The position numbers and the translations under genes are program-made. The notes beneath the pieces are model-generated. The model saw only the letters and a program-made list of their open reading frames with translations, searched no databases and was not told the DNA's origin. This document shows positions 39,587 to 50,477 of a stretch of 64,000 nucleotides of DNA, piece after piece. Origin of the DNA: Micavibrio sp. GTDB taxonomy: Bacteria > Patescibacteriota > Minisyncoccia > Moranbacterales > GCA-2747515. How positions within the stretch are numbered: the first letter of the stretch is position 1; each line of letters starts with the position of its first letter. The stretch is from assembly GCA_020718085.1 (NCBI GenBank), contig DYDB01000001.1, positions 218,891-282,890 of the forward strand, written 5' to 3'.

Positions 39587-40378
39587 ATGACAATTTACAC
39601 ACCAAAGATCCAAAAAGCGATTCAATTCGCGATCCAAACGCATGAGATCGATCAAAAACAAAAAAGAAAAGGTAAAGACATTGCGTACATCATCCATCCG
39701 TTGACTGTGGGACTGATCCTCGCACGTGCAGGTGCATCGGAAGATGTCATTGTTGCGGGCATTTTACATGATACGATCGAGGATTCGCTGGAACAGCATA
39801 AAGTCACAGCAGAAACAGTAGAAAAACTGTTTGGCAAAGAGGTGGCAACGTATGTGCTGAGCGTGACAGAAACAAACAAGGCATTGCCGTGGGAGGAACG
39901 CAAAGAACACGCCCTGGCACACATCGCGACATTATCAGAAGGATCCCTGCTAATCAAATCTGCAGATATCCTGGTAAATGGTACAGAACTTCTCGATGAC
40001 CATGCACAGCATGGTGATGCTGTATTTAAACGATTCAACGCCCCGAGCAAGGAACTGCTCATCAAAAATCAATTGCGTCTCATTACGGCGATCATAAAGA
40101 AGTGGGCTGATAACCCATTGGCACAGGACTTGAAATTCTTGGCGTATAGTTTATTTGGGATCTGTGAGTTGGCATTTATGATGGCTGAGCCGGCACGGAG
40201 CATTCCACACAGAGAATATGATGAGAATGCTGTGATCTCATGTCCAGTGTGTTTATGGCAGGGAATGGGGAGGGATGCATTATCGGAATCTGGGCATGTA
40301 TGTGTTGAGTTACGATGCCCAATCTGCGATAAGATGATCATTGTGGCTGAATTCGCGATGTTGAATAAAGCTTTATAA
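39587..40378 (+). CDS. HD-domain phosphohydrolase (RelA/SpoT-type HD) with a C-terminal zinc ribbon
   Basis: HPLTVGLILARAGASEDVIVAGILHDTIED matches the HD motif of (p)ppGpp hydrolases. C-terminal CPVC..CPIC. Confidence 0.7.
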   Translation: MTIYTPKIQKAIQFAIQTHEIDQKQKRKGKDIAYIIHPLTVGLILARAGASEDVIVAGILHDTIEDSLEQHKVTAETVEKLFGKEVATYVLSVTETNKALPWEERKEHALAHIATLSEGSLLIKSADILVNGTELLDDHAQHGDAVFKRFNAPSKELLIKNQLRLITAIIKKWADNPLAQDLKFLAYSLFGICELAFMMAEPARSIPHREYDENAVISCPVCLWQGMGRDALSESGHVCVELRCPICDKMIIVAEFAMLNKAL

Positions 40379-40458: not shown

Positions 40459-43400
40459 ATGACCTCCAAAAATAGCATTATCGACAATCATAGTCATAAT
40501 AACCTCTATCGAGCCATATCCGACGCAATAGGGTCTGACACAATAGGCATAGATATTGAGGTCGGATATTTTTATCTCTGTGGTTTTGAACTTTTGTCAA
40601 AAAAACTCAGTAAAATCAAAGTGCGATTATTAGTTGGTTCTTATATTGACCCAGAAGCTATGCCAACTTTGATAATGGAGTCGATGAAAAAATCAACGAT
40701 AAATCTTGATCCTTTTCAGCCTAGAAGCATTCCGTCATCAAAACAAGAAAGAGTCCGAGCTTTTAGCGAAGGCATTAAAAAACTTGCAAACCAAACGTCA
40801 ATATTTGACGCGCCGGAAGCACAGGAATCATACTCAATTCTCGAAAAAAAACTCGAGGATGGCTCCCTTGAAATTAAAATGACCGAAACACAAGCACATG
40901 GAAAATATTATGTGATCCATAATAAAAATGTAGGCAAAGTCTTTATGGGCTCGAGCAATTTTACGTATAATGGCCTAATTGGACAACAGGAAATAAACGA
41001 ATCTTTTGATTCAGAAGAAAAATATATAGAATATTCAAATAAATTTTCTGATCGATGGTCTGATGCTCGCAATATTGTCATTCAAGAAAAAGGAAAATCA
41101 GACATGTTTTTGAGAAAATTTAAAGATGAGCTGTGGATGAATGTGGTGCCGACCCCGTATCTTATGTATATTCGACTTCTTAATGAAATATTTGGTGCCG
41201 AATATGAAATTGATGTAACTAGCGCCTCGCAGGCAACACGAGGACAATATTTAAATCTTTCATATCAGATGGACGCGGTGAAGATGGCACTTGAAAGATT
41301 AAAAAATTATGATGGTGCTATTATTGCAGATGTTGTTGGTTTAGGGAAAAGTGTTATAGCTACTACTATTGCTGTAAACTGTCCTGACTTAAAAACGATC
41401 ATTATTGCTCCGCCACATTTAGTTCCGATGTGGGAGGATTATGTTGAAGAATTTAAACTTCGAGGACCAAAGGTTTTTAGTTCTGGGAAAATTGATGATG
41501 TTTATAATAAATACAAAAATTCTACAGAGCCTATATTATTTATCTTTGATGAAGCCCATAGATATAGAAATGAGGACACACAAGACTATCAGTCACTTCA
41601 TCAATTGACTCGCAGCAATAGTGAAAATAAGGTTCTAATATTATCCGCAACACCTTTTAATAATGATCCGAGTGATATCTTTGCGTTGATTAAACTTTTT
41701 CAAACCCCTGGTGCAGCTACACTCCGAACAGTGGAAAATTTATCAGCAAAGTTTGCAGATCTTGCAAATAGATACAAAATGCTGCGACGATTTCAAGCAA
41801 AGGGAGCCGTAACCGCAGATCAACGTAAAGAATTGGATATCAAGCGCGACGACATTGCTTCTGAACTTCGACGATTGCTCGAACCTATTATAATTAGACG
41901 TTCAAGGATAGATCTTGAAAAAATTACTCGATACCGAGAGGATTTAAAAGCTCAAGAAATTGAATTTTCAAAGATGAACGATCCAATTATCCGGGAGTAT
42001 GAGTTAGGTGAATTTACCAGCATATATCTGGATACTATAGAGCGAATTGTGCCAAATTCTAAAATCGCGGGTGGTTTAACTGGTGCGCGATATATGCCAA
42101 CGACCTACGCATTAGATATTGTTGAATTTGCTGAGAAGTATCCAGAATTGGAGGATATCAGAACTGCTCAAATGAACGTGGCTTCTTTTATGCGCAAACT
42201 TTTGGTAATGCGCTTTGAAAGTTCAAGAGCGGCGTTCAAAAGCACTCTGCAAAAATTTATCGATTCACATCAAAAAATTCTTGATTGGGTAGAAAAGAAA
42301 CAATTAGTACCGATTTCCAAGAAAGCCTACATTCCCTCTCCAGATGAGATGCCGGAAGAGGATACCGAAGAAATCAATTTGGAAGAACATGCTGAATTTG
42401 CAAACACTGAAGTTAAAAATAGTAAAAAGATTGTTTTCGTCAAACTTGAAGATCTGAATGAAAATTTTGTACCTGAGCTTAAGCGCGATATCAGTGTACT
42501 AAGAGATATTTACGAAAAATGGTTTGGTTCGCGATCGCCATTTTTATCGATGCCAGACCCAAAATTAAAACAACTCACGCTAGATATTCAAGAACATCTA
42601 GAAAATGATCCCCATCGAAAAATAATTATTTTTAGCATGTATGCTGATACTGTTGTTTATGTGGGAGAATCTCTGCAAAAGTCTGGAATTTCAACATTAG
42701 TTTATACTGCCCAGAATAGCAGAAATGATCGCAAAATAGTGAGAGAGAATTTTGACGCCGGTATCCCGGACAATAAACAATCTGATGATTTTAGAGTTCT
42801 TGTTGCAACTGATGCTTTGAGCGAGGGCGTAAATCTAAATAGAGCAGGACGAATTATTAATTATGATATTCCATATAACCCAACCAGAGTCATACAGCGA
42901 GTGGGCAGAATAAACCGCATAGATAAAAAAATGTTTAATGAGCTTTTTATTGATAATTATTTTCCTACCGAACACGGCGAGAAGGAAACAAATATTAGAG
43001 GGGTATCAACATTAAAGATGCAGATATTTAATTCCGTGGTAGGAAATGACTCGCGCACTCTCACGAAAGATGAAACCCCAGAATCATTTTTTATCGATGA
43101 ATTTAGAAAAGCAACGACTGAAGAAGAGAGTTGGGACACTACTCATAGAGAAGCATATGAGCAAGCAAAGAAAAATATTGAAGTAATTGAGCTTGCAAAA
43201 AAAATACCGATGCGAGCGCGAATTATTAGAAAAAATAAACAAGTTCAATTGGGAGTTGGCGTTGGTATTCGCGGCGAAAATAAAATTTATGCTCTTGAAA
43301 ATAGTGGACAGGCTGAGTTGGTTGATGCAGAAAAAGTATTAAATCATTTTGCGGCGAAGCAAGATGAAATTGGCGAGAAAGCCGATGATCAGTTTGGTGT

Positions 43401-43746
43401 TGTATTTGATGCAATTAAAGAAAAATTATTTGAAAAACCGCCGATGGGAAGAATGTCAAAAAACCGAACTGATGTTGTAAATATATTACGAAGCGTTCAA
43501 GAATCTCAGTATCAGAATTATTGTGATGATTTATTGCAAGTTGTGAGTGATCTTGACGATCTTTCAGAAGGTCAACTCAAGGCAATAATAAGGCTCGCAA
43601 AAAATACAGACGTATCTGATGATAAATTGCTGGAAGGCATTATTGAAATAGCGCCAGAACAGCAGATAAGAGTTAGTTTAGAAAGACAAAGCAATGAAAC
43701 AAAATCAGCAAATCTTCTATTATTCACTCAAGAGCACCGAGTATGA
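40459..43746 (+). CDS. PLD-family nuclease domain fused to an SNF2/SF2 helicase (restriction-type motor-nuclease)
   Basis: N-terminal PLD-like HxK..GSxN (HGKYYVIHNKNVGKVFMGSSNF). Helicase motifs I (DVVGLGKS), II (DEAHRYRN), III (LSATPFNN) and VI (QRVGRINR). Confidence 0.85.
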   Translation: MTSKNSIIDNHSHNNLYRAISDAIGSDTIGIDIEVGYFYLCGFELLSKKLSKIKVRLLVGSYIDPEAMPTLIMESMKKSTINLDPFQPRSIPSSKQERVRAFSEGIKKLANQTSIFDAPEAQESYSILEKKLEDGSLEIKMTETQAHGKYYVIHNKNVGKVFMGSSNFTYNGLIGQQEINESFDSEEKYIEYSNKFSDRWSDARNIVIQEKGKSDMFLRKFKDELWMNVVPTPYLMYIRLLNEIFGAEYEIDVTSASQATRGQYLNLSYQMDAVKMALERLKNYDGAIIADVVGLGKSVIATTIAVNCPDLKTIIIAPPHLVPMWEDYVEEFKLRGPKVFSSGKIDDVYNKYKNSTEPILFIFDEAHRYRNEDTQDYQSLHQLTRSNSENKVLILSATPFNNDPSDIFALIKLFQTPGAATLRTVENLSAKFADLANRYKMLRRFQAKGAVTADQRKELDIKRDDIASELRRLLEPIIIRRSRIDLEKITRYREDLKAQEIEFSKMNDPIIREYELGEFTSIYLDTIERIVPNSKIAGGLTGARYMPTTYALDIVEFAEKYPELEDIRTAQMNVASFMRKLLVMRFESSRAAFKSTLQKFIDSHQKILDWVEKKQLVPISKKAYIPSPDEMPEEDTEEINLEEHAEFANTEVKNSKKIVFVKLEDLNENFVPELKRDISVLRDIYEKWFGSRSPFLSMPDPKLKQLTLDIQEHLENDPHRKIIIFSMYADTVVYVGESLQKSGISTLVYTAQNSRNDRKIVRENFDAGIPDNKQSDDFRVLVATDALSEGVNLNRAGRIINYDIPYNPTRVIQRVGRINRIDKKMFNELFIDNYFPTEHGEKETNIRGVSTLKMQIFNSVVGNDSRTLTKDETPESFFIDEFRKATTEEESWDTTHREAYEQAKKNIEVIELAKKIPMRARIIRKNKQVQLGVGVGIRGENKIYALENSGQAELVDAEKVLNHFAAKQDEIGEKADDQFGVVFDAIKEKLFEKPPMGRMSKNRTDVVNILRSVQESQYQNYCDDLLQVVSDLDDLSEGQLKAIIRLAKNTDVSDDKLLEGIIEIAPEQQIRVSLERQSNETKSANLLLFTQEHRV

Positions 43747-46700
43747 AAAATCCTATTTTTGAAAATAAATTCAACGAAGAGGCTTTTAATGACTTTATTC
43801 ATGGCATTATTCCAAATCTTTCCTTGGGAAAAAAACGAGCCGAGGTTCGCACTGGCTTCAAATCAATTCAACAAATCGCTGAAGCCGGCGGAAATACACT
43901 AGATTTAGTCGTTTTTGTTGCAAAAATTGAATCATCACTTCATGCTCGTGTCGAAATTACAAAAAATACATACTCGATACTAAAAAGTCATGCCCGGTCT
44001 AATGCTTTAGTTGCCTATATTTCAGATGATTCTTCAGAATGGCGCCTCTCTCTTATTACGACAAAAGTTACGAGGACAAAAGACGGGATAAGGGAATCAA
44101 TATCAAATCCTCGCAGATTTTCATATGTCTTAGGGCCAGATGCAAAAGTGGCAACCCCTTCAAAAATGCTCCAAGGACATGTTGATTCAATTATTGATCT
44201 GGAAAATAAGTTTTCTTTGGCAGTGGTTAGCAAGGAATTTTTTACTCAAATAGCAACACAATATTCTAAACTTGTTGGAGGTACGAGGGGTGCAGGCAAA
44301 AAGGCAATAGTTTTCAAAAGAACGCTTAAGCTTGGGGATGAAAATGATGCCGTCAATGCAAATTTTGCCATTCGACTTATTGGTCGATTAGTTTTTTGTT
44401 GGTTTTTGAAACAAAAGAAAGGACATGCGGACAATCCGCTTATACCGTCTGAGATTCTATCTGTTTCCGCAGTAAAAACAATTAGTGATTATTATCATTC
44501 AGTTTGTGTGCCACTTTTTTTTGAAGTGTTAAATAAACCACAATCATCTAGACCGACATTTTATTCTCATGCTGAATTATTTGATAAAGTTCCTTTCTTG
44601 AATGGTGGTTTGTTCCAAGACCATGTCGAAGATAATCACAAATTCAATCGTGCCACCGGGATGAGTGAACGTCGCGGTGTGGTAGATGTGCCGGATGTTT
44701 GGTTTTCTGAATTATTTCAAATTTTTGAGGAGTATAACTTTACTATAGACGAAAACACTTCAATTGATACCGAGCTTTCAATCGATCCGGAAATGTTAGG
44801 ACGAATTTTTGAAAATTTATTGGCAGAGGTAAACCCGGAGACGGGCGCAAGCGCTCGCAAATCAACTGGCAGTTTCTACACACCTAGAGAGATTGTGGAT
44901 TTTATGGTGGAAGAATCACTCATCGCTCACCTAAAAACACAAATTAATATATCCGAAGATAAGTTACGTGCTCTTTCATCTTACGATTTGGACGATGATG
45001 TATCACAACCAATAGACCCGCAAGAACGAAAACTTATAGTTGAAGCAATTCATAATACCACAGTTTTAGATCCGGCCTGTGGCTCGGGCGCATTCCCAAT
45101 AGGAGTTCTCCAGAGATTGGTTCATATGCTCGGTGTTCTTGACCCGGAATGTTCAATTTATTTAAGCAAGATTCCGCCCGAAGTTCGCAGGGAATTACAA
45201 AAACATAGCCTTACTTATGTGCGGAAACTTGGAGTAATTAGAGAGTGTATTCACGGAGTAGATATTCAGCCCATCGCTATAGATATTTCGCGTCTGCGAT
45301 GTTTTCTGACGCTTGTAGTAGATCAGCAAGTTGATGACAGCGCTCCAAACAGAGGCATTGAACCATTGCCAAACCTTGATTTTAAGTTTGTTTGCGCCAA
45401 CACTCTTGTTAAACCACCAGTTCATGAAGGTCCGCTATTTGGTGATGAGTTTGCGACTGCTTTAGGCGAGCTTATTGATGAATATTTTGCGCCGGTTGAC
45501 CAGTTGCACAAACTGGAGACGGCGCGAAAATTGCAGCAATTGATTAGTGATAAAACAAAAAAAGAGTTAGAAAATATTTTGAAGTCATATAGTTACATAA
45601 AAGATGAAAAATACAAAAAAGCACTGGCTCAGAAAAATGAAAAATCAGACGCTGAAAGAATGCGCATAAATAATTTGTGGGGAAGTTATGAAAATATTTT
45701 TCAAAATAAACCAGTTGGCTTTTTTGATACCAGATATTTTTTCCCCACAGTATTTCGCAATGGTGGATTTGATATTGTGATTGGAAATCCACCTTATGTT
45801 GGAGAAAAAGGACATAAAGAGATGTTTAGGGAAATTAAATATTCACCACTGGGAAAGAGATTTTATCAAGGAAAGATGGATTTTTTCTATTTTTTCTTTC
45901 ATGTAGCTTTGGATAATTTACAGGATGATGGGGTGCTGGCGTATATAACCACTAATTATTACTTAACAGCATTGGGTGCGCGGAAACTTCGGGAAGATTT
46001 TAAAAACCGTACTATTATCAAAAAACTTGTTAATTTTAACGAGCTTAAAATTTTTAAATCGGCTGCGGGTCAACATAACATGGTTACAATTTTAACTAAA
46101 AGACAAAACAACGGAACATTAGTTAAAACATGTATAACGAAAAATACAGGCGATACAACTCCTGCTGTACTAGAAAGTATTATTGGTTGGAAAGACAATA
46201 ATACAGACTACTATGAAGTTGCTCAAAAAGATTTATATGATGGGGAAGAGAATTATTTGCGTCTAGCTGGAACAAATAGTGAGCGTAATCCTCTACAGTT
46301 CTTATTGAATAAGATAAAAGAGAAGGGTGAATTATTAGAGAATATTTGCAATATTAATACTGGAATAATGGGAGGCTGCGATTATATAAATAAAAGTAAT
46401 ATTGAATATTGCACACAAAGAGAAAGGTTACAAAAAGATATTCAGGTAGGAGATGGTGTTTTTGTTCTTGATATAAAAAATGATCGAGATAAAAAAGTAT
46501 TTGATATTATTCAAAACAATAAATCTCTAGTGAAATTTTTTAAAAATTCAGATATTGTTAAGTATCATACAAGCTATTCAACAACAAAATATATCATTTT
46601 CTCATCTAGAGAAAATGATGCAGTAAAAGATAGCAATGTAATGAAGCATCTGGATAAATTCAAACAAGTTCTTATAAAAATTCGTGAAATAAATAATGAG

Positions 46701-47201
46701 AAAACTTCAGATTACCCATTTCTTAGACGAGGAACTTCTCATCAGGAAATATTTGTATCGCCTAAAATAGTTACTCCATATCGATGTTCTGTAAACTTGT
46801 TCGCATATAATGATATTCCTTGGTATGCGAGAACTGATGTGTATTATTTATCTGAAAAAGACAAGAGAATATCTCTTAAATATATACTCGGCTTGTTAAA
46901 TTCAAAACTTTATTATTTATGGCTCTATCATCGTGGAAAAAGAAAAGGAGAGCTTTTAGAAATATTACAAAAACCTTTATCTGAAATTCCAATTAAAAAA
47001 ATACCAGAGCTAGAACAAAAACCCTTCATCGAAATTGTTGATAAAATTTTGACAATTACCAAATCCAGCGATTATTTAGAAAATCCAGCAAAAAAAGCAG
47101 AAGTCGAAAAGTACGAAGAGGATATTGATAAGCTTGTTTATAAGCTCTATGACCTTACGTATGAAGAAATTGAAATTGTGAAAAAATCAATTAAAAAATA
47201 A
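43743..47201 (+). CDS. Gamma-class N6-adenine DNA methyltransferase (Eco57I/PglX-like) with large N- and C-terminal (TRD-like) regions
   Basis: SFYTPREIV, DPACGSGAFP (motif I) and NPPY (motif IV, IGNPPYVGE). Start overlaps the upstream stop (ATGA), so translationally coupled. Confidence 0.85.
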   Translation: MKNPIFENKFNEEAFNDFIHGIIPNLSLGKKRAEVRTGFKSIQQIAEAGGNTLDLVVFVAKIESSLHARVEITKNTYSILKSHARSNALVAYISDDSSEWRLSLITTKVTRTKDGIRESISNPRRFSYVLGPDAKVATPSKMLQGHVDSIIDLENKFSLAVVSKEFFTQIATQYSKLVGGTRGAGKKAIVFKRTLKLGDENDAVNANFAIRLIGRLVFCWFLKQKKGHADNPLIPSEILSVSAVKTISDYYHSVCVPLFFEVLNKPQSSRPTFYSHAELFDKVPFLNGGLFQDHVEDNHKFNRATGMSERRGVVDVPDVWFSELFQIFEEYNFTIDENTSIDTELSIDPEMLGRIFENLLAEVNPETGASARKSTGSFYTPREIVDFMVEESLIAHLKTQINISEDKLRALSSYDLDDDVSQPIDPQERKLIVEAIHNTTVLDPACGSGAFPIGVLQRLVHMLGVLDPECSIYLSKIPPEVRRELQKHSLTYVRKLGVIRECIHGVDIQPIAIDISRLRCFLTLVVDQQVDDSAPNRGIEPLPNLDFKFVCANTLVKPPVHEGPLFGDEFATALGELIDEYFAPVDQLHKLETARKLQQLISDKTKKELENILKSYSYIKDEKYKKALAQKNEKSDAERMRINNLWGSYENIFQNKPVGFFDTRYFFPTVFRNGGFDIVIGNPPYVGEKGHKEMFREIKYSPLGKRFYQGKMDFFYFFFHVALDNLQDDGVLAYITTNYYLTALGARKLREDFKNRTIIKKLVNFNELKIFKSAAGQHNMVTILTKRQNNGTLVKTCITKNTGDTTPAVLESIIGWKDNNTDYYEVAQKDLYDGEENYLRLAGTNSERNPLQFLLNKIKEKGELLENICNINTGIMGGCDYINKSNIEYCTQRERLQKDIQVGDGVFVLDIKNDRDKKVFDIIQNNKSLVKFFKNSDIVKYHTSYSTTKYIIFSSRENDAVKDSNVMKHLDKFKQVLIKIREINNEKTSDYPFLRRGTSHQEIFVSPKIVTPYRCSVNLFAYNDIPWYARTDVYYLSEKDKRISLKYILGLLNSKLYYLWLYHRGKRKGELLEILQKPLSEIPIKKIPELEQKPFIEIVDKILTITKSSDYLENPAKKAEVEKYEEDIDKLVYKLYDLTYEEIEIVKKSIKK

Positions 47202-47278
47202 TTATATTAACGCTGGTTTTTCATATCTCAAATATTATTAGTAGACTTGGGGGAATAACATAATTAATAATTAAAAAG

Positions 47279-47680
47279 ATGAATTACAATAATTTTTATC
47301 AACCAAAGAAACGCGTATTTATTAGCTTTGATTTTGACAACGATCAATTTCTCAGGGATTCTCTTATTGGTCAATGTAAAAACAATGGCACGCCGTTTGA
47401 TATGGAGGATTGGTCAGTGAAAGAGCCATGGAGCCAATGTGATTGGAAAGAAAAATGTTTGTCTAAAATCAAGAGATGTAATTTAGTTATTGTTATGGTG
47501 GGAGAGAAAACACATACTTGTAGCGGAGTGTTAGCTGAAATAGCAATGGCGAAAGAAGCTCGTGTTCCAGTTGTTGGATTAAAAGGCTATTCTAATAAAA
47601 ATTGCCCCAGACCGGAAGGATTGGATGGTTACTATAATTGGGCATGGGAAAATGTAAAAAAACTAGTTAATAGATATTAG
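47279..47680 (+). CDS. Short TIR-like (ThsB / DUF1863-type) domain protein
   Basis: RVFISFDFDND..CNLVIVMVGEKTHTCSGVLAEIAMAKEARVPVVGLKG parallels ThsB SVTVVLIGAETSNRRWVKYEIEESYKRGNGLLGIYI. Confidence 0.65.
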   Translation: MNYNNFYQPKKRVFISFDFDNDQFLRDSLIGQCKNNGTPFDMEDWSVKEPWSQCDWKEKCLSKIKRCNLVIVMVGEKTHTCSGVLAEIAMAKEARVPVVGLKGYSNKNCPRPEGLDGYYNWAWENVKKLVNRY

Positions 47681-47685
47681 ATAAT

Positions 47686-48168
47686 ATGGATAAAAAGCTT
47701 CTTAATAGGTCTGTGCAAGAATACGGTGAGAATTATTATGCTCATTATTTCGAACAATACAAAATGTATATTGAAAGCACCGAAAGAATTAGCGATAGAA
47801 GGCAGAATGCAAATAATTTCTTTTTAACTATTAATACCGTTCTTATATCCGCATTTGGATTGTCTTTTCAACTTAAAGTACTAGAAAATCTTAATTGGAT
47901 AAAAATGATTTTAGCATTACTCGGGCTTGTTATTTGTGTGATATTTTGGTTTCTGCTTAGGGCTTATAAGCAGTTAAATTCTGGCAAATTTAAAGTTATT
48001 CACGAAATAGAACAAAATTTGCCATTAGGATTATATGATTATGAATGGGAGCTTCTTGAAAAAGGAAAAAATAAAAAAATTTATTATCCATTTTCTCATA
48101 TCGAATTGTTAATACCGTGGGTATTTGGTTTATTCTATTTTGTTTTAGGAGTTATTTTTATAGTATAA
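47686..48168 (+). CDS. Small 2-TM (SLATT-like) membrane protein, putative effector partner of the TIR protein
   Basis: 5-nt gap after the TIR gene. 160 aa with a soluble N-terminal helix, two adjacent TM helices, a helical C-terminus and a terminal hydrophobic segment. Confidence 0.45.
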   Translation: MDKKLLNRSVQEYGENYYAHYFEQYKMYIESTERISDRRQNANNFFLTINTVLISAFGLSFQLKVLENLNWIKMILALLGLVICVIFWFLLRAYKQLNSGKFKVIHEIEQNLPLGLYDYEWELLEKGKNKKIYYPFSHIELLIPWVFGLFYFVLGVIFIV

Positions 48169-48227
48169 AGGTTTCGCCTAAATGAATAATGCTGTTCATT
48201 TATTAATTACTTACATAATTTTAAAAT

Positions 48228-49652
48228 ATGGCAAAAAAAGAAGCTACAAACGAGCTGGTAAATTACGATAGGCAAATGGCTCAACATCAAGAGCAATTTT
48301 TGACTTTGCTTGGTAGCAAGGGTTTGCCAACAGAGAATATATTTGTTCCAATCAAAGAAAGATCCACTGTTTTTTCAAATGCTAATTCTTTGTTAGATAA
48401 TATTGATGATACAAGAAGATTTGAAGCAGTTTACGTTTCTAAATTTTTTGCTGCAGTTGCCGTTGGTTTATTTGATGCTGCATTGAATTATCTTTGGGAT
48501 GAGACGGTCGTTCATTTACGAAAAAGAGTTGAAACATATGATCTTGAATATTTTTATGACATAGCAACTTCAGCTGACAAAAGAAAAGAGCTCAAAACCA
48601 TAGATGATATTTCTAAGCTTACAGATGATGAACTGTTGAGAGGATCACTTACAATTGAGCTTATATCTGAGGTTGGATTTAGGAATATGGATCTTGTAAG
48701 GCATATGAGAAATAATGCTAGTGCAGCACATCCAAACCAAATGAATATTACGGGCCTCAAGTTAATTTCGATGGCAGAAGATTGTCTGAGGGAAGTTATC
48801 TCAACACCAATTCCGCCTGCAGCTATAGCTGTCCAGAAGCTACTTGAGAACATAAAAACTACCACAATGAAAACTGGCGATGCACAAGACGTGTCAGTGC
48901 ATTTTTCTAGTATGGGGCCAGTTCGAACACAAAGATTGGTCGAAGGGTTATTTGGAATTTTTTATAAAAGAGAAACAACTGAGGCCGTAAGACAAAATAT
49001 TAGACTACTCGCACCAATGCTTTGGCCTTACGTGGATGAACCTACTAGAAAGAATTTAGGCCTAAAGCATGCATATTTTAGTGCAAATAATCATATTGTA
49101 GAAAAGAATTTTTCCAAAGAGTTCTTGGCTGTTGTTGATGGTCTTCAATATATAACTGATCAGCATAGAGCAATAGAAGTTTCTACAGTTCTTGAGGAGC
49201 TAAAAAATGCGCATTATGGTTTAAATAATTTTTATAATGAAGTGTTGCCTGCACGGAGACTTAAATCAATAATTGGAGATGTGCCCAGTGTTCCCATGGG
49301 GATTCAAAATAAGTATATAGAAACCTTAATTGATGTATTTCTGACGAATGGATATGGCGAAGCGCGATCTGCAAATGACATATATTTCGAATTAATAAAT
49401 GGCTTTACCCCAAAACAAGCCGTTTATGCGATAACCTTAATATTTGATGAGGGAATTTCGAGTAAATTAAGAATTAAATTGTGTGCAGAAAAATATTACG
49501 AAATGATTAAAATTGTTGAACCAAAAATATCTACACATGCTGCCAAGCAGTTAATCGAACAGATAAAATTAAAAAAAACACAGGCAGGAGATATTAGGTC
49601 TGATGAAAAATTAAAGCAAGTCGTAAAATTAGCGCTAGAGGAAATTAGATGA
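48228..49652 (+). CDS. Hypothetical 474-aa protein with an Rx6H (HEPN-like) motif
   Basis: RNNASAAH within LVRHMRNNASAAHPN. No other recognisable domain. Confidence 0.55.
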   Translation: MAKKEATNELVNYDRQMAQHQEQFLTLLGSKGLPTENIFVPIKERSTVFSNANSLLDNIDDTRRFEAVYVSKFFAAVAVGLFDAALNYLWDETVVHLRKRVETYDLEYFYDIATSADKRKELKTIDDISKLTDDELLRGSLTIELISEVGFRNMDLVRHMRNNASAAHPNQMNITGLKLISMAEDCLREVISTPIPPAAIAVQKLLENIKTTTMKTGDAQDVSVHFSSMGPVRTQRLVEGLFGIFYKRETTEAVRQNIRLLAPMLWPYVDEPTRKNLGLKHAYFSANNHIVEKNFSKEFLAVVDGLQYITDQHRAIEVSTVLEELKNAHYGLNNFYNEVLPARRLKSIIGDVPSVPMGIQNKYIETLIDVFLTNGYGEARSANDIYFELINGFTPKQAVYAITLIFDEGISSKLRIKLCAEKYYEMIKIVEPKISTHAAKQLIEQIKLKKTQAGDIRSDEKLKQVVKLALEEIR

Positions 49653-49692
49653 AAAATTATAATAATTTCATTAATATTTATAAACAAAAACT

Positions 49693-49726
49693 GTAACATA
49701 ATCCAACGGCCGTGGAATTATGTTAC
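49693..49726. repeat. 34-bp palindromic cassette-boundary repeat, copy A (GTAACATAATccaACGGCCGTggaATTATGTTAC)
   Basis: 10-bp AT-rich arms, ACGGCCGT core, followed by TTTTAGAGAATAATTTA. The next start codon lies 29 nt downstream. Confidence 0.9.
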
Positions 49727-49754
49727 TTTTAGAGAATAATTTAAAAACAAAATT

Positions 49755-50477
49755 ATGACGAAAAAAATATCGTTTAGTGATAAATTAATTGAGTTTTATC
49801 TGACTGTTTTTGTTGTTACTCTCATTTATCTTTATTTACATCACGAATATTTTGCAATGGGTGTTTTAGTCGTTACAATGCCTTGGCCAGTAGTTGCATA
49901 TATTTTATATAAAAAGAGAAAAAAGCGATCTTTTTTTGAAAGTAATAATTCACTGGAAAAAATTAGAGCGTTGACTCCGATGCAGTTTGAGGATTTTATC
50001 TGTCACTTGTTTGATAAATTGGGTTATGTGACGGAAAGGGTGGGTGGCTCGAGTGATGGTGGTATTGATGTGATTGCAACAAAAAATGGGGTGAAGCACT
50101 ATATTCAATGTAAAAAATTTATTACTAGTCAGGTAAGTGTTGGTGCGATGCGTGATTTTTATGGTGCTGTGACAGATAAACTTACAGATGCAAAATCATT
50201 TTTTATCACAACAAATATTTTCACGCTTGAAGCAGAACAGTTTGCTGAAGGGAAGTCGATAGAGTTAATTGATGGGAAAAAACTGATGGACTATGTAAAA
50301 CTGGCAGGTATCGATGCGCCAGCATCGGATCAGACAAGTTCCAGTGGTGATACTGCAGAAAAGTGTCCAAATTGTGGAAACGATTTGATTCTAAGAACTG
50401 CACGAAAAGGCACTCACGCCGGAAAAACTTTCCTCGGTTGCACAAACTACCCCCACTGCCGATTTGTCAAAAAGTAA
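49755..50477 (+). CDS. Membrane-anchored Mrr-type (PD-D/ExK) restriction endonuclease with a C-terminal topoisomerase-type C4 zinc ribbon
   Basis: Mrr_cat signature GGSSDGGIDVIATKNGVKHYIQCKK..FITTNIFT..LIDG; CPNCG..GCTNYPHCRF. Its stop codon lies inside repeat B. Confidence 0.75.
   Translation: MTKKISFSDKLIEFYLTVFVVTLIYLYLHHEYFAMGVLVVTMPWPVVAYILYKKRKKRSFFESNNSLEKIRALTPMQFEDFICHLFDKLGYVTERVGGSSDGGIDVIATKNGVKHYIQCKKFITSQVSVGAMRDFYGAVTDKLTDAKSFFITTNIFTLEAEQFAEGKSIELIDGKKLMDYVKLAGIDAPASDQTSSSGDTAEKCPNCGNDLILRTARKGTHAGKTFLGCTNYPHCRFVKK

Follow-up and report, generated by a model that had tools for sequence, protein, structure and literature searches.

We analysed a 64,000-nucleotide stretch of contig DYDB01000001.1 (Micavibrio sp., assembly GCA_020718085.1), referred to below as the window, and found in it a pair of adjacent genes that probably constitutes a two-gene Thoeris-type anti-phage module, in which TIR signalling would lead to abortive infection. 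The two open reading frames (ORFs) are located at 47279..47680 (+, 133 amino acids (aa)) and 47686..48168 (+, 160 aa), and both begin with ATG. The spacer between them is 5 nucleotides (nt) long, which implies co-transcription. Both ORFs and their spacing agree with the initial annotation of this DNA. The first gene encodes a stand-alone ThsB-type TIR protein with a conserved glutamate that is predicted to be catalytic. The second encodes a membrane protein of the Pfam family 8xMP, which is the effector class entered as '3TM' among the putative Thoeris types of Yirmiya et al. (10.64898/2025.12.03.692087).

A ThsB-type TIR protein with an 8xMP partner

The 133-aa protein matched the Pfam family PF08937 (ThsB_TIR) with 29.7 bits (E 8.7e-7), above the gathering cut-off of 21.2, and the PADLOC ThsB models at 2.9e-8. 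Its matches to DUF4062, Nuc_deoxyrib_tr and TIR_2 were all under their own cut-offs. The AlphaFold2 (AF2) model, built with 33 homologs, had a predicted local distance difference test (pLDDT) score of 78 and showed a Rossmann-like fold of alternating strands and helices. When this model was searched against the PDB with Foldseek, the best match was a Bacillus cereus TIR protein (8fz9, E 3e-8, TM 0.75), followed by EcThsB (8wcf) and ThsB-Tad3 (9b7d), and then by the TIRs of SARM1, SPARTA and MyD88. Glu87 was invariant in the family alignment of 33 homologs, and aligned with the Glu of 'GQKWEI' in the type IV ThsB of Pseudomonas sp. 1-7 and of 'VRYEI' in B. cereus ThsB. In the Pseudomonas TIR the predicted active-site mutation E79Q abolishes defence (Rousset et al., 10.1101/2024.10.24.620036). 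The motifs VFISFDFDND and LVIVMVGEKTHTCSGVLAEIAMAKEARVPVVGL that had been quoted for the 133-aa protein are present in it, and its description as a short ThsB-like TIR was borne out by the Pfam score, the fold and the invariant glutamate.

We placed the window TIR in the cluster 2635319349 type ('ISFDFDND...DWSVKEP...WTW') of Table S1 in Yirmiya et al.; here and below, statements on this table refer to the rows of it that were listed. Identity was 45-52% to TIRs of this cluster labelled type IV or type V, 31% (E 1e-14) to the characterised Pseudomonas sp. 1-7 type IV ThsB, ~28% to a type VII ThsB from the listed rows, and ~21% to the B. cereus type I ThsB. Among the rows listed, most labels of cluster 2635319349 are 'Caspase - Type IV' and some are 'DUF2270 - Type V' (10.64898/2025.12.03.692087). 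The PADLOC candidate system PDC-M50 was incomplete, as the TIR matched PDC-M50B (2.7e-6) and the 160-aa protein gave no match to PDC-M50A at E<=1. As a separate observation, the crystal structure in PDB entry 8fz9, titled 'Bacillus cereus TIR protein' and unannotated, is visibly homologous to a validated, SLATT-partnered type VII ThsB in the listed rows (m1t6bs2105n_136545923), and that ThsB clade may thus already have a structure.

The 160-aa protein matched PF24838 (8xMP, octameric membrane protein family) over nearly its full length, with residues 22-159 on model positions 1-135 of 136 (145.2 bits, E 1.4e-42; cut-off 30). The same family was matched by 63/63 diverse relatives. Searches gave 586 close homologs and, at E<=1e-3, 2,817 representatives at 50% identity. 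The partner had initially been taken for a SLATT-type protein. The SLATT families (SLATT_1-6 and SLATT_fungal) gave no match to it at E<=1 and none to the 63 relatives at E<=10, and for this lack of hidden Markov model (HMM) matches we rejected the SLATT assignment. DUF2270 (PF10028), searched at the same thresholds in the protein and its relatives, was also unmatched, and kinship with DUF2270/ThsF was rejected as having no HMM evidence. There were weak matches to S_4TM in one of the 63 members (0.0017) and, over the transmembrane (TM) hairpin, to the PADLOC models of the CBASS '2TM effector' (0.0053) and PycTM (0.067). Some 8xMP proteins are longer; their extensions consist of extra TM segments, with no Pfam domain in them, and no TIR-8xMP fusion was seen. 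Sequence, profile and fold searches found no solved structure for 8xMP, and literature searches found no paper under the Pfam name or the accession PF24838 and nothing relevant on Thoeris TIRs in Patescibacteria.

Hydropathy and the AF2 monomer agreed on three hydrophobic segments (46-62, 72-91 and 141-160), where two TM helices had been described before. The monomer model (pLDDT 68) had helices at 10-62, 70-110 and 137-159. There were 0 charged residues in 46-62 and 0 in 141-160, and hydropathy peaked at 145-151. The N-terminal segment 1-45 holds 7 Lys and Arg residues, consistent with a cytoplasmic location, and the linker 92-140 holds 8. This linker between TM2 and TM3 is 49 residues long and charged, and carries the motif 'RxYKQLNxGKFxVIHEIExxLP...YEW...YYPFSHIE'. 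Conserved family-wide are Y25, R38, R39, N50 and P144, together with a larger group that lies in the linker (Y94, K101, F102, E109, L112, P113, E120, W121, Y133 and E140). Across the 63 diverse members Y25 was invariant, and R38/R39 and P144 were nearly invariant. Conservation was concentrated in the predicted cytoplasmic N-helix and the TM2-TM3 linker rather than in the TM helices, as expected for a ligand-sensing effector. These two regions are the likely sensor of the protein and may bind its ligand, in place of the bare module with no sensor domain that had been pictured. Of the earlier reading as a minimal Thoeris-like or TIR-SLATT pair, the Thoeris-like TIR with a co-inherited membrane effector holds, and the SLATT family does not. 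The features of the pair are as follows.

47202..47278, + strand: AT-rich 77-nt stretch 5' of the TIR gene, probable promoter region of the two-gene operon
47279..47680, + strand: thsB-like gene, single-domain TIR, predicted signal-producing enzyme (PF08937, PADLOC ThsB, AF2 model, Foldseek)
47537..47539, + strand: codon of Glu87, predicted catalytic Glu of the TIR (invariant in homologs; aligns with the type IV ThsB Glu)
47686..48168, + strand: 8xMP-family gene, three-TM membrane protein, predicted signal-gated effector (PF24838)
47686..47820, + strand: 8xMP residues 1-45, predicted cytoplasmic N-terminal helix, ending in the conserved juxtamembrane 'SDRRQxANN'
47821..47958, + strand: 8xMP residues 46-91, helical hairpin of TM1 (46-62), short external loop and TM2 (72-91)
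47959..48105, + strand: 8xMP residues 92-140, conserved cytoplasmic linker, candidate signal-sensing region
48106..48165, + strand: 8xMP residues 141-160, third, C-terminal TM helix

Three weak sigma-70-like matches (9/12) were found at 47170-47293, a count not above shuffled expectation, and scanning the surroundings of the pair for promoters and terminators likewise yielded no excess over shuffled sequence. Identical copies of the region were present in independent assemblies of the groundwater metagenome ERR628383 (loci L001 and L002), and a near-identical copy in the NCBI assembly GCA_017973895.1 (L003). The longest contig with the 8xMP protein was 389 kb. In L003 the TIR ORF (2639-2938) is only 99 aa long, with 98% identity at 74% coverage, and 107 nt separate it from the 8xMP gene; either the allele is truncated or the assembly is in error here.

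Co-inheritance of the pair and its genomic setting

A scan of GTDB with a single genome for each species, using patterns drawn from close homologs of 8xMP, yielded 43 loci. A TIR ORF, identified with an HMM of the window TIR family, was located immediately upstream of the 8xMP gene and on the same strand in 39/43 loci, and one more locus had a TIR after a gap of 246 nt. The remaining loci were a contig end, a degraded copy or a fragment. This adjacency is far beyond chance, and co-inheritance of the two genes is near-obligate. The bulk of the 43 loci were from Patescibacteria. The other bacterial hosts were Bdellovibrionota, Persephonella (Aquificota), Smithella, Rosettibacter (Ignavibacteriota), Sphingobacteriaceae (Bacteroidota), Gamma- and Alphaproteobacteria, Elusimicrobia and Brevinema (Spirochaetes), and the archaea were one Bathyarchaeia and one Pacearchaeota. 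The 8xMP proteins of these loci were 53-78% identical to the window protein across phyla, pointing to horizontal spread.

The association extended to distant 8xMP members (34-43% identity), where 5/6 had an adjoining TIR. Three of the six carried a ThsB_TIR gene upstream, one of them with two TIR genes, and one of these ThsB_TIR-paired members (L052) was beside an integrase, ResIII, Abi_C and a methylase. Two of the six had a TIR_2-type gene downstream, which is the reversed gene order. The last (P0381) follows gidB on a short contig that breaks off downstream of it, and no TIR was seen. A single 8xMP gene was preceded by two TIR genes in operons of L047 (2283-3692), L133 (5191-6516) and L042 (1122-2239), and in L047 and L133 the two TIRs were from different clades.

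The 8xMP family could also be matched to a published class of putative effectors. In December 2025, Yirmiya et al. catalogued 29 putative Thoeris types and validated types V-XI (10.64898/2025.12.03.692087). Small membrane effectors are used by the validated types II, V, VII and X, among them the three-TM DUF2270 of type V, the SLATT protein of type VII and the ion channel of type X, and TIR+SLATT is now validated as type VII Thoeris. In the listed rows of Table S1, '3TM' and 'SLATT' are separate effector classes. About 100 of the rows listed have the putative class '3TM', and all their TIRs belong to clusters 2734565194/2556961318, of the 'FISHSW...YSKWINIEI' type. To identify the '3TM' class we used eight TIR sequences from these rows, with which 80 metagenome loci were retrieved. 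An 8xMP ORF directly adjoined the TIR in 73/80 of them, in the order 8xMP then TIR (E 1e-21 to 1e-51). In L133, the TIR matching row ga0208694_100224518 adjoins an 8xMP that scored 155 bits on PF24838. As 73/80 of these loci carry an adjacent 8xMP, the '3TM' class is the 8xMP family. The window TIR type (cluster 2635319349) did not appear in the ~100 '3TM' rows listed. The architecture had earlier been judged unusual and reduced; it belongs to a family with ~2,817 representatives, and TIR+'3TM' is already a listed putative Thoeris type.

The genes around the pair in the window did not follow it to other genomes. Homologs of the 474-aa protein and the Mrr-type nuclease downstream, and of the PLD-SNF2 helicase upstream, were found in none of the other loci of the 43-locus set, and a distant relative of the upstream methyltransferase was found in only one. 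The conserved unit is therefore the two-gene pair. We rejected the 474-aa gene, which the initial annotation had considered along with the pair, as a third component, because it is missing beside the pair elsewhere and is solitary in unrelated contexts. The flanking PLD-SNF2 helicase/methyltransferase and the Mrr nuclease were likewise rejected as parts of the system, as they are not conserved with it.

The pair lies in a defence island. In the window it is preceded by a restriction-modification-like (R-M-like) PLD-SNF2/methyltransferase unit and followed by the 474-aa protein and then the Mrr-type nuclease. Guanine-plus-cytosine (GC) content was 0.349 over 40459-50477, compared with 0.423 in the first 40 kb, with its minimum of 0.282 in the 8xMP gene, and was 0.37 onward to the end of the window. 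This fall points to horizontal acquisition of at least one island, beginning just past the HD_4 gene (39587-40378). tRNA genes were not detected in any part of the window.

The neighbouring genes were characterised in their own right. At 40459-47201 (+), a 1095-aa protein with a PLD (HKD) domain and an SNF2 helicase overlaps by 4 nt a 1152-aa N6-adenine methyltransferase of Eco57I/TaqI_C type. The best PADLOC matches of the methyltransferase were type IIG restriction enzyme-methyltransferase models, and the matches of the helicase, to DISARM DrmD and to the PADLOC 'HKD+Snf2' candidate C3a139, both fell short of NCBIfam cut-offs. The two look like a two-gene R-M-like defence unit, with no curated system fully matched. 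The 474-aa protein at 48228-49652 (+) had no Pfam, PADLOC or NCBIfam match; its more than 1,500 homologs are from Patescibacteria, Cyanobacteria, Bacteroidota, Ignavibacteria, Acidobacteria and others. Its gene is solitary in unrelated neighbourhoods (L134 and L135) and may be an independent island gene. The 240-aa protein at 49755-50477 (+) combines TM helices at its N-terminus with an Mrr_cat restriction-endonuclease domain and, at the C-terminus, a zinc ribbon of the topoisomerase type; it matched PADLOC PDC-S02 and type IV methyl-directed restriction enzyme models, and is probably a membrane-anchored Mrr-like nuclease.

Across the 43 genomes, 136 ORFs from the flanks of the pair were searched for Pfam families, and N6_N4_Mtase was counted 14 times, ResIII 6, Methylase_S 5, N6_Mtase 4 and Eco57I 4. 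R-M components were dominant among the flanking ORFs, and recombinases were also present. LexA-like repressors (LexA_DNA_bind with Peptidase_S24) were beside the pair in 6-7/43 genomes and in L133 (4538-5185), which could reflect an integration hot spot or SOS-linked regulation. We also observed that in L008, L010 and L034 (3694-5578) two ORFs of ~285 and 348 aa, with the same coordinates and sizes, precede the pair in different phyla (Patescibacteria and Ignavibacteriota), and that L023 (1-1573) has the corresponding 348-aa ORF, with a truncated one before it, ahead of the pair. The pair may travel with a small R-M cassette. Among 2.9 million viral contigs there was 1 match, L133 (IMGVR_UViG_3300009666_001272). 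On this contig ftsZ, a thioredoxin-reductase-like gene and lexA surround the TIR-TIR-8xMP operon, and it is probably a cellular fragment, resembling the candidate phyla radiation (CPR), or a prophage edge. A phage-borne origin of the pair was rejected as this sole viral match looks cellular, which indicates that the module is cellular.

Proposed mechanism and alternative explanations

In the mechanism that we propose, infection would be sensed and the 133-aa ThsB-like TIR would convert NAD+, through Glu87, to a messenger derived from ADP-ribose. The candidates for this messenger are cyclic ADP-ribose (cADPR) isomers, with N7-cADPR as the leading guess. The 8xMP protein would form a homo-oligomer in the membrane, with three TM helices per subunit, and the messenger would bind it through the cytoplasmic N-helix and the TM2-TM3 linker, possibly at an inter-protomer site like those in the ring models of ThsF and ThsG. 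Activated 8xMP would then open or disrupt the membrane, and phage replication would be stopped by abortive infection.

The assignment of roles within this mechanism comes from partner swapping, which occurs on both sides of the pair. Within the window TIR clade the neighbour varies between a caspase, DUF2270 and 8xMP (for the table, among the rows listed), and 8xMP is paired with at least three TIR clades, sometimes with two TIRs per operon. A swappable neighbour within one TIR clade is the logic by which Yirmiya et al. defined Thoeris effectors (10.64898/2025.12.03.692087). On these comparative grounds the TIR would be the signal generator and 8xMP the effector. For the signal, an E. coli TIR product activates the Pseudomonas caspase, and type IV representatives have been characterised in both of the TIR clades paired with 8xMP (10.1101/2024.10.24.620036), a circumstance that hints at N7-cADPR as the leading candidate. 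The lack of a recognised signal-binding domain in 8xMP is compatible with membership in Thoeris, as the validated types V, VI and X also function without classical sensor domains (10.64898/2025.12.03.692087).

Several points weigh against the pair being a Thoeris-type module of this kind. The '3TM' class is missing from the set tested in the preprint, and the preprint allows that in unverified types the TIR may itself be an NAD+-depleting effector. The same TIR clusters hold type I, IV and V partners, so the signal is not reliably predicted from them and N7-cADPR remains a guess. In the 160-aa protein and the 63 relatives we found no nucleotide-binding domain (SLOG, Macro, SAVED or similar) and only PF24838. 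The 8xMP monomer model is of moderate quality (pLDDT 68) and matched nothing informative in the PDB, and the 'octamer' derives solely from the Pfam family name. Finally, our locus samples were retrieved by sequence patterns of close homologs and are not an unbiased census.

If the TIR were the effector, the roles would be reversed: it would be a toxic NADase, and 8xMP would be a sensor, regulator or membrane anchor that switches it on, for example by sensing the membrane perturbation caused by phage DNA injection or by a holin. TIR domains do serve as NADase effectors in CBASS, Pycsar, SPARTA and Avs, the preprint leaves the option open for types such as this one, and the absence of a known nucleotide-binding domain in 8xMP would fit. 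We nevertheless consider reversed roles unlikely, because the window TIR clade is 45-52% identical to ThsBs paired with a caspase or DUF2270 in the listed rows and is homologous to the signal-producing Pseudomonas type IV ThsB, and because pairing with at least three TIR clades better fits one effector with interchangeable generators than a sensor that must touch unrelated TIR surfaces. The defence function of the pair is so far a prediction, and this leaves room for a non-defence role as a selfish, toxin-antitoxin-like addiction cassette or a physiological membrane-signalling pair in host-dependent CPR, hitch-hiking in mobile islands. The strong signature of horizontal transfer (53-78% identity across phyla; low GC), the distant 8xMP next to gidB with no TIR seen on its short contig, and the lexA genes beside the pair in several genomes would agree with it. 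However, R-M and Abi genes and recombinases prevail among the neighbours, the preprint chose these TIR clusters for their enrichment beside known defence genes (10.64898/2025.12.03.692087), and the catalytic Glu is invariant, which together make a role outside defence very unlikely.

It could also be argued that the pair is a type VII (TIR-SLATT) Thoeris system in which 8xMP is a divergent SLATT responding to canonical cADPR. TIR-SLATT is a validated type, 8xMP is likewise small, helical and membrane-bound, adjoins a TIR and has soluble helices on either side of a TM hairpin, and the weak PADLOC matches to the CBASS '2TM effector' and PycTM point the same way. Against this, neither the 160-aa protein (E<=1) nor any of the 63 members (E<=10) matched a SLATT model, Pfam curates 8xMP separately and the match to it spans the full length, the TM segments number three and not two, the listed rows of the preprint keep '3TM' apart from 'SLATT', and identity between the window TIR and a type VII ThsB from those rows is only ~28%. 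We regard a divergent SLATT as barely plausible.

We return to the preferred reading, a TIR that would generate a signal for an 8xMP effector. A broader form of it is possible, though we lean slightly against it: TIR+8xMP would be a distinct functional Thoeris type and the main TIR-signalling immunity of CPR/Patescibacteria and DPANN-like archaea, with 8xMP as a ligand-gated ring pore that senses N7-cADPR or a new TIR product through a site formed by the N-helix and the TM2-TM3 linker. For this site we propose the residues R38, R39, Y94, K101 and W121. At 133 + 160 aa (<900 bp), the pair would, if functional, rank among the smallest known signalling immune systems. It gives a predicted effector role to a large family (~2,800 clusters at 50% identity), and it joins three facts that stood apart in the sources searched, namely that Pfam 8xMP is the '3TM' putative Thoeris effector, that this effector is served by at least three TIR clades, and that the window TIR clade is dominant in Patescibacteria and reaches archaea, lineages in which signalling immunity is poorly documented. 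Since both partner TIR clades have N7-cADPR-producing relatives, the pair is a candidate for a second N7-cADPR receptor, here located in the membrane. In practice it offers a minimal construct for the gating by a TIR signal of a membrane effector without a classical sensor domain.

Comparison with known Thoeris types

The pair shares a ThsB-type TIR, as presumed signal generator, with type I (SIR2-SLOG ThsA) and type II (TM-Macro ThsC) Thoeris, of which type II also kills via a membrane protein. Unlike these, it has no SLOG, SIR2 or Macro domain, and its TIR is ~21% identical to B. cereus ThsB. The 8xMP operons with two TIR genes are reminiscent of multi-TIR type III Thoeris. Type IV Thoeris consists of ThsB and the caspase-like ThsE and uses the signal N7-cADPR (Rousset et al., 10.1101/2024.10.24.620036). 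The window pair has in common with it the TIR clade and the aligned catalytic Glu, but its effector is a 160-aa membrane protein and not a caspase-like protease; no Peptidase_C14 or CHAT gene was found beside the pair, where the neighbours are 8xMP, the 474-aa protein and the Mrr nuclease.

Type V Thoeris (ThsB with DUF2270/ThsF, signal 3'cADPR) also has a small three-TM effector, whose model is a homo-oligomeric ring with charged pockets at the protomer interfaces (10.64898/2025.12.03.692087), and some TIRs of the window clade pair with DUF2270 in the listed rows. By sequence, however, 8xMP is a different family, with no match to PF10028 at any threshold tried. With type VII Thoeris (ThsB with SLATT/ThsH, signal cADPR), as with the TM effectors of CBASS and Pycsar, the pair shares the combination of a nucleotide-signal generator and a small helical membrane-disrupting effector, whereas the lack of a SLATT HMM match, the three TM segments and the different TIR clade (28% identity) set it apart from type VII.

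The closest counterpart is the putative TIR+3TM type, with which the pair has in common the effector family 8xMP and the two-gene operon of a TIR and a membrane protein. In the listed rows, the TIRs of that type are from clusters 2734565194/2556961318, and most of their operons have 8xMP before the TIR; the window TIR, in contrast, is from cluster 2635319349 and precedes its 8xMP, in a form found mainly in Patescibacteria. TIR+'3TM' was already known as a predicted Thoeris type, and to the rows of it that were listed the window adds another TIR clade and gene order, together with a distribution in CPR and archaea.

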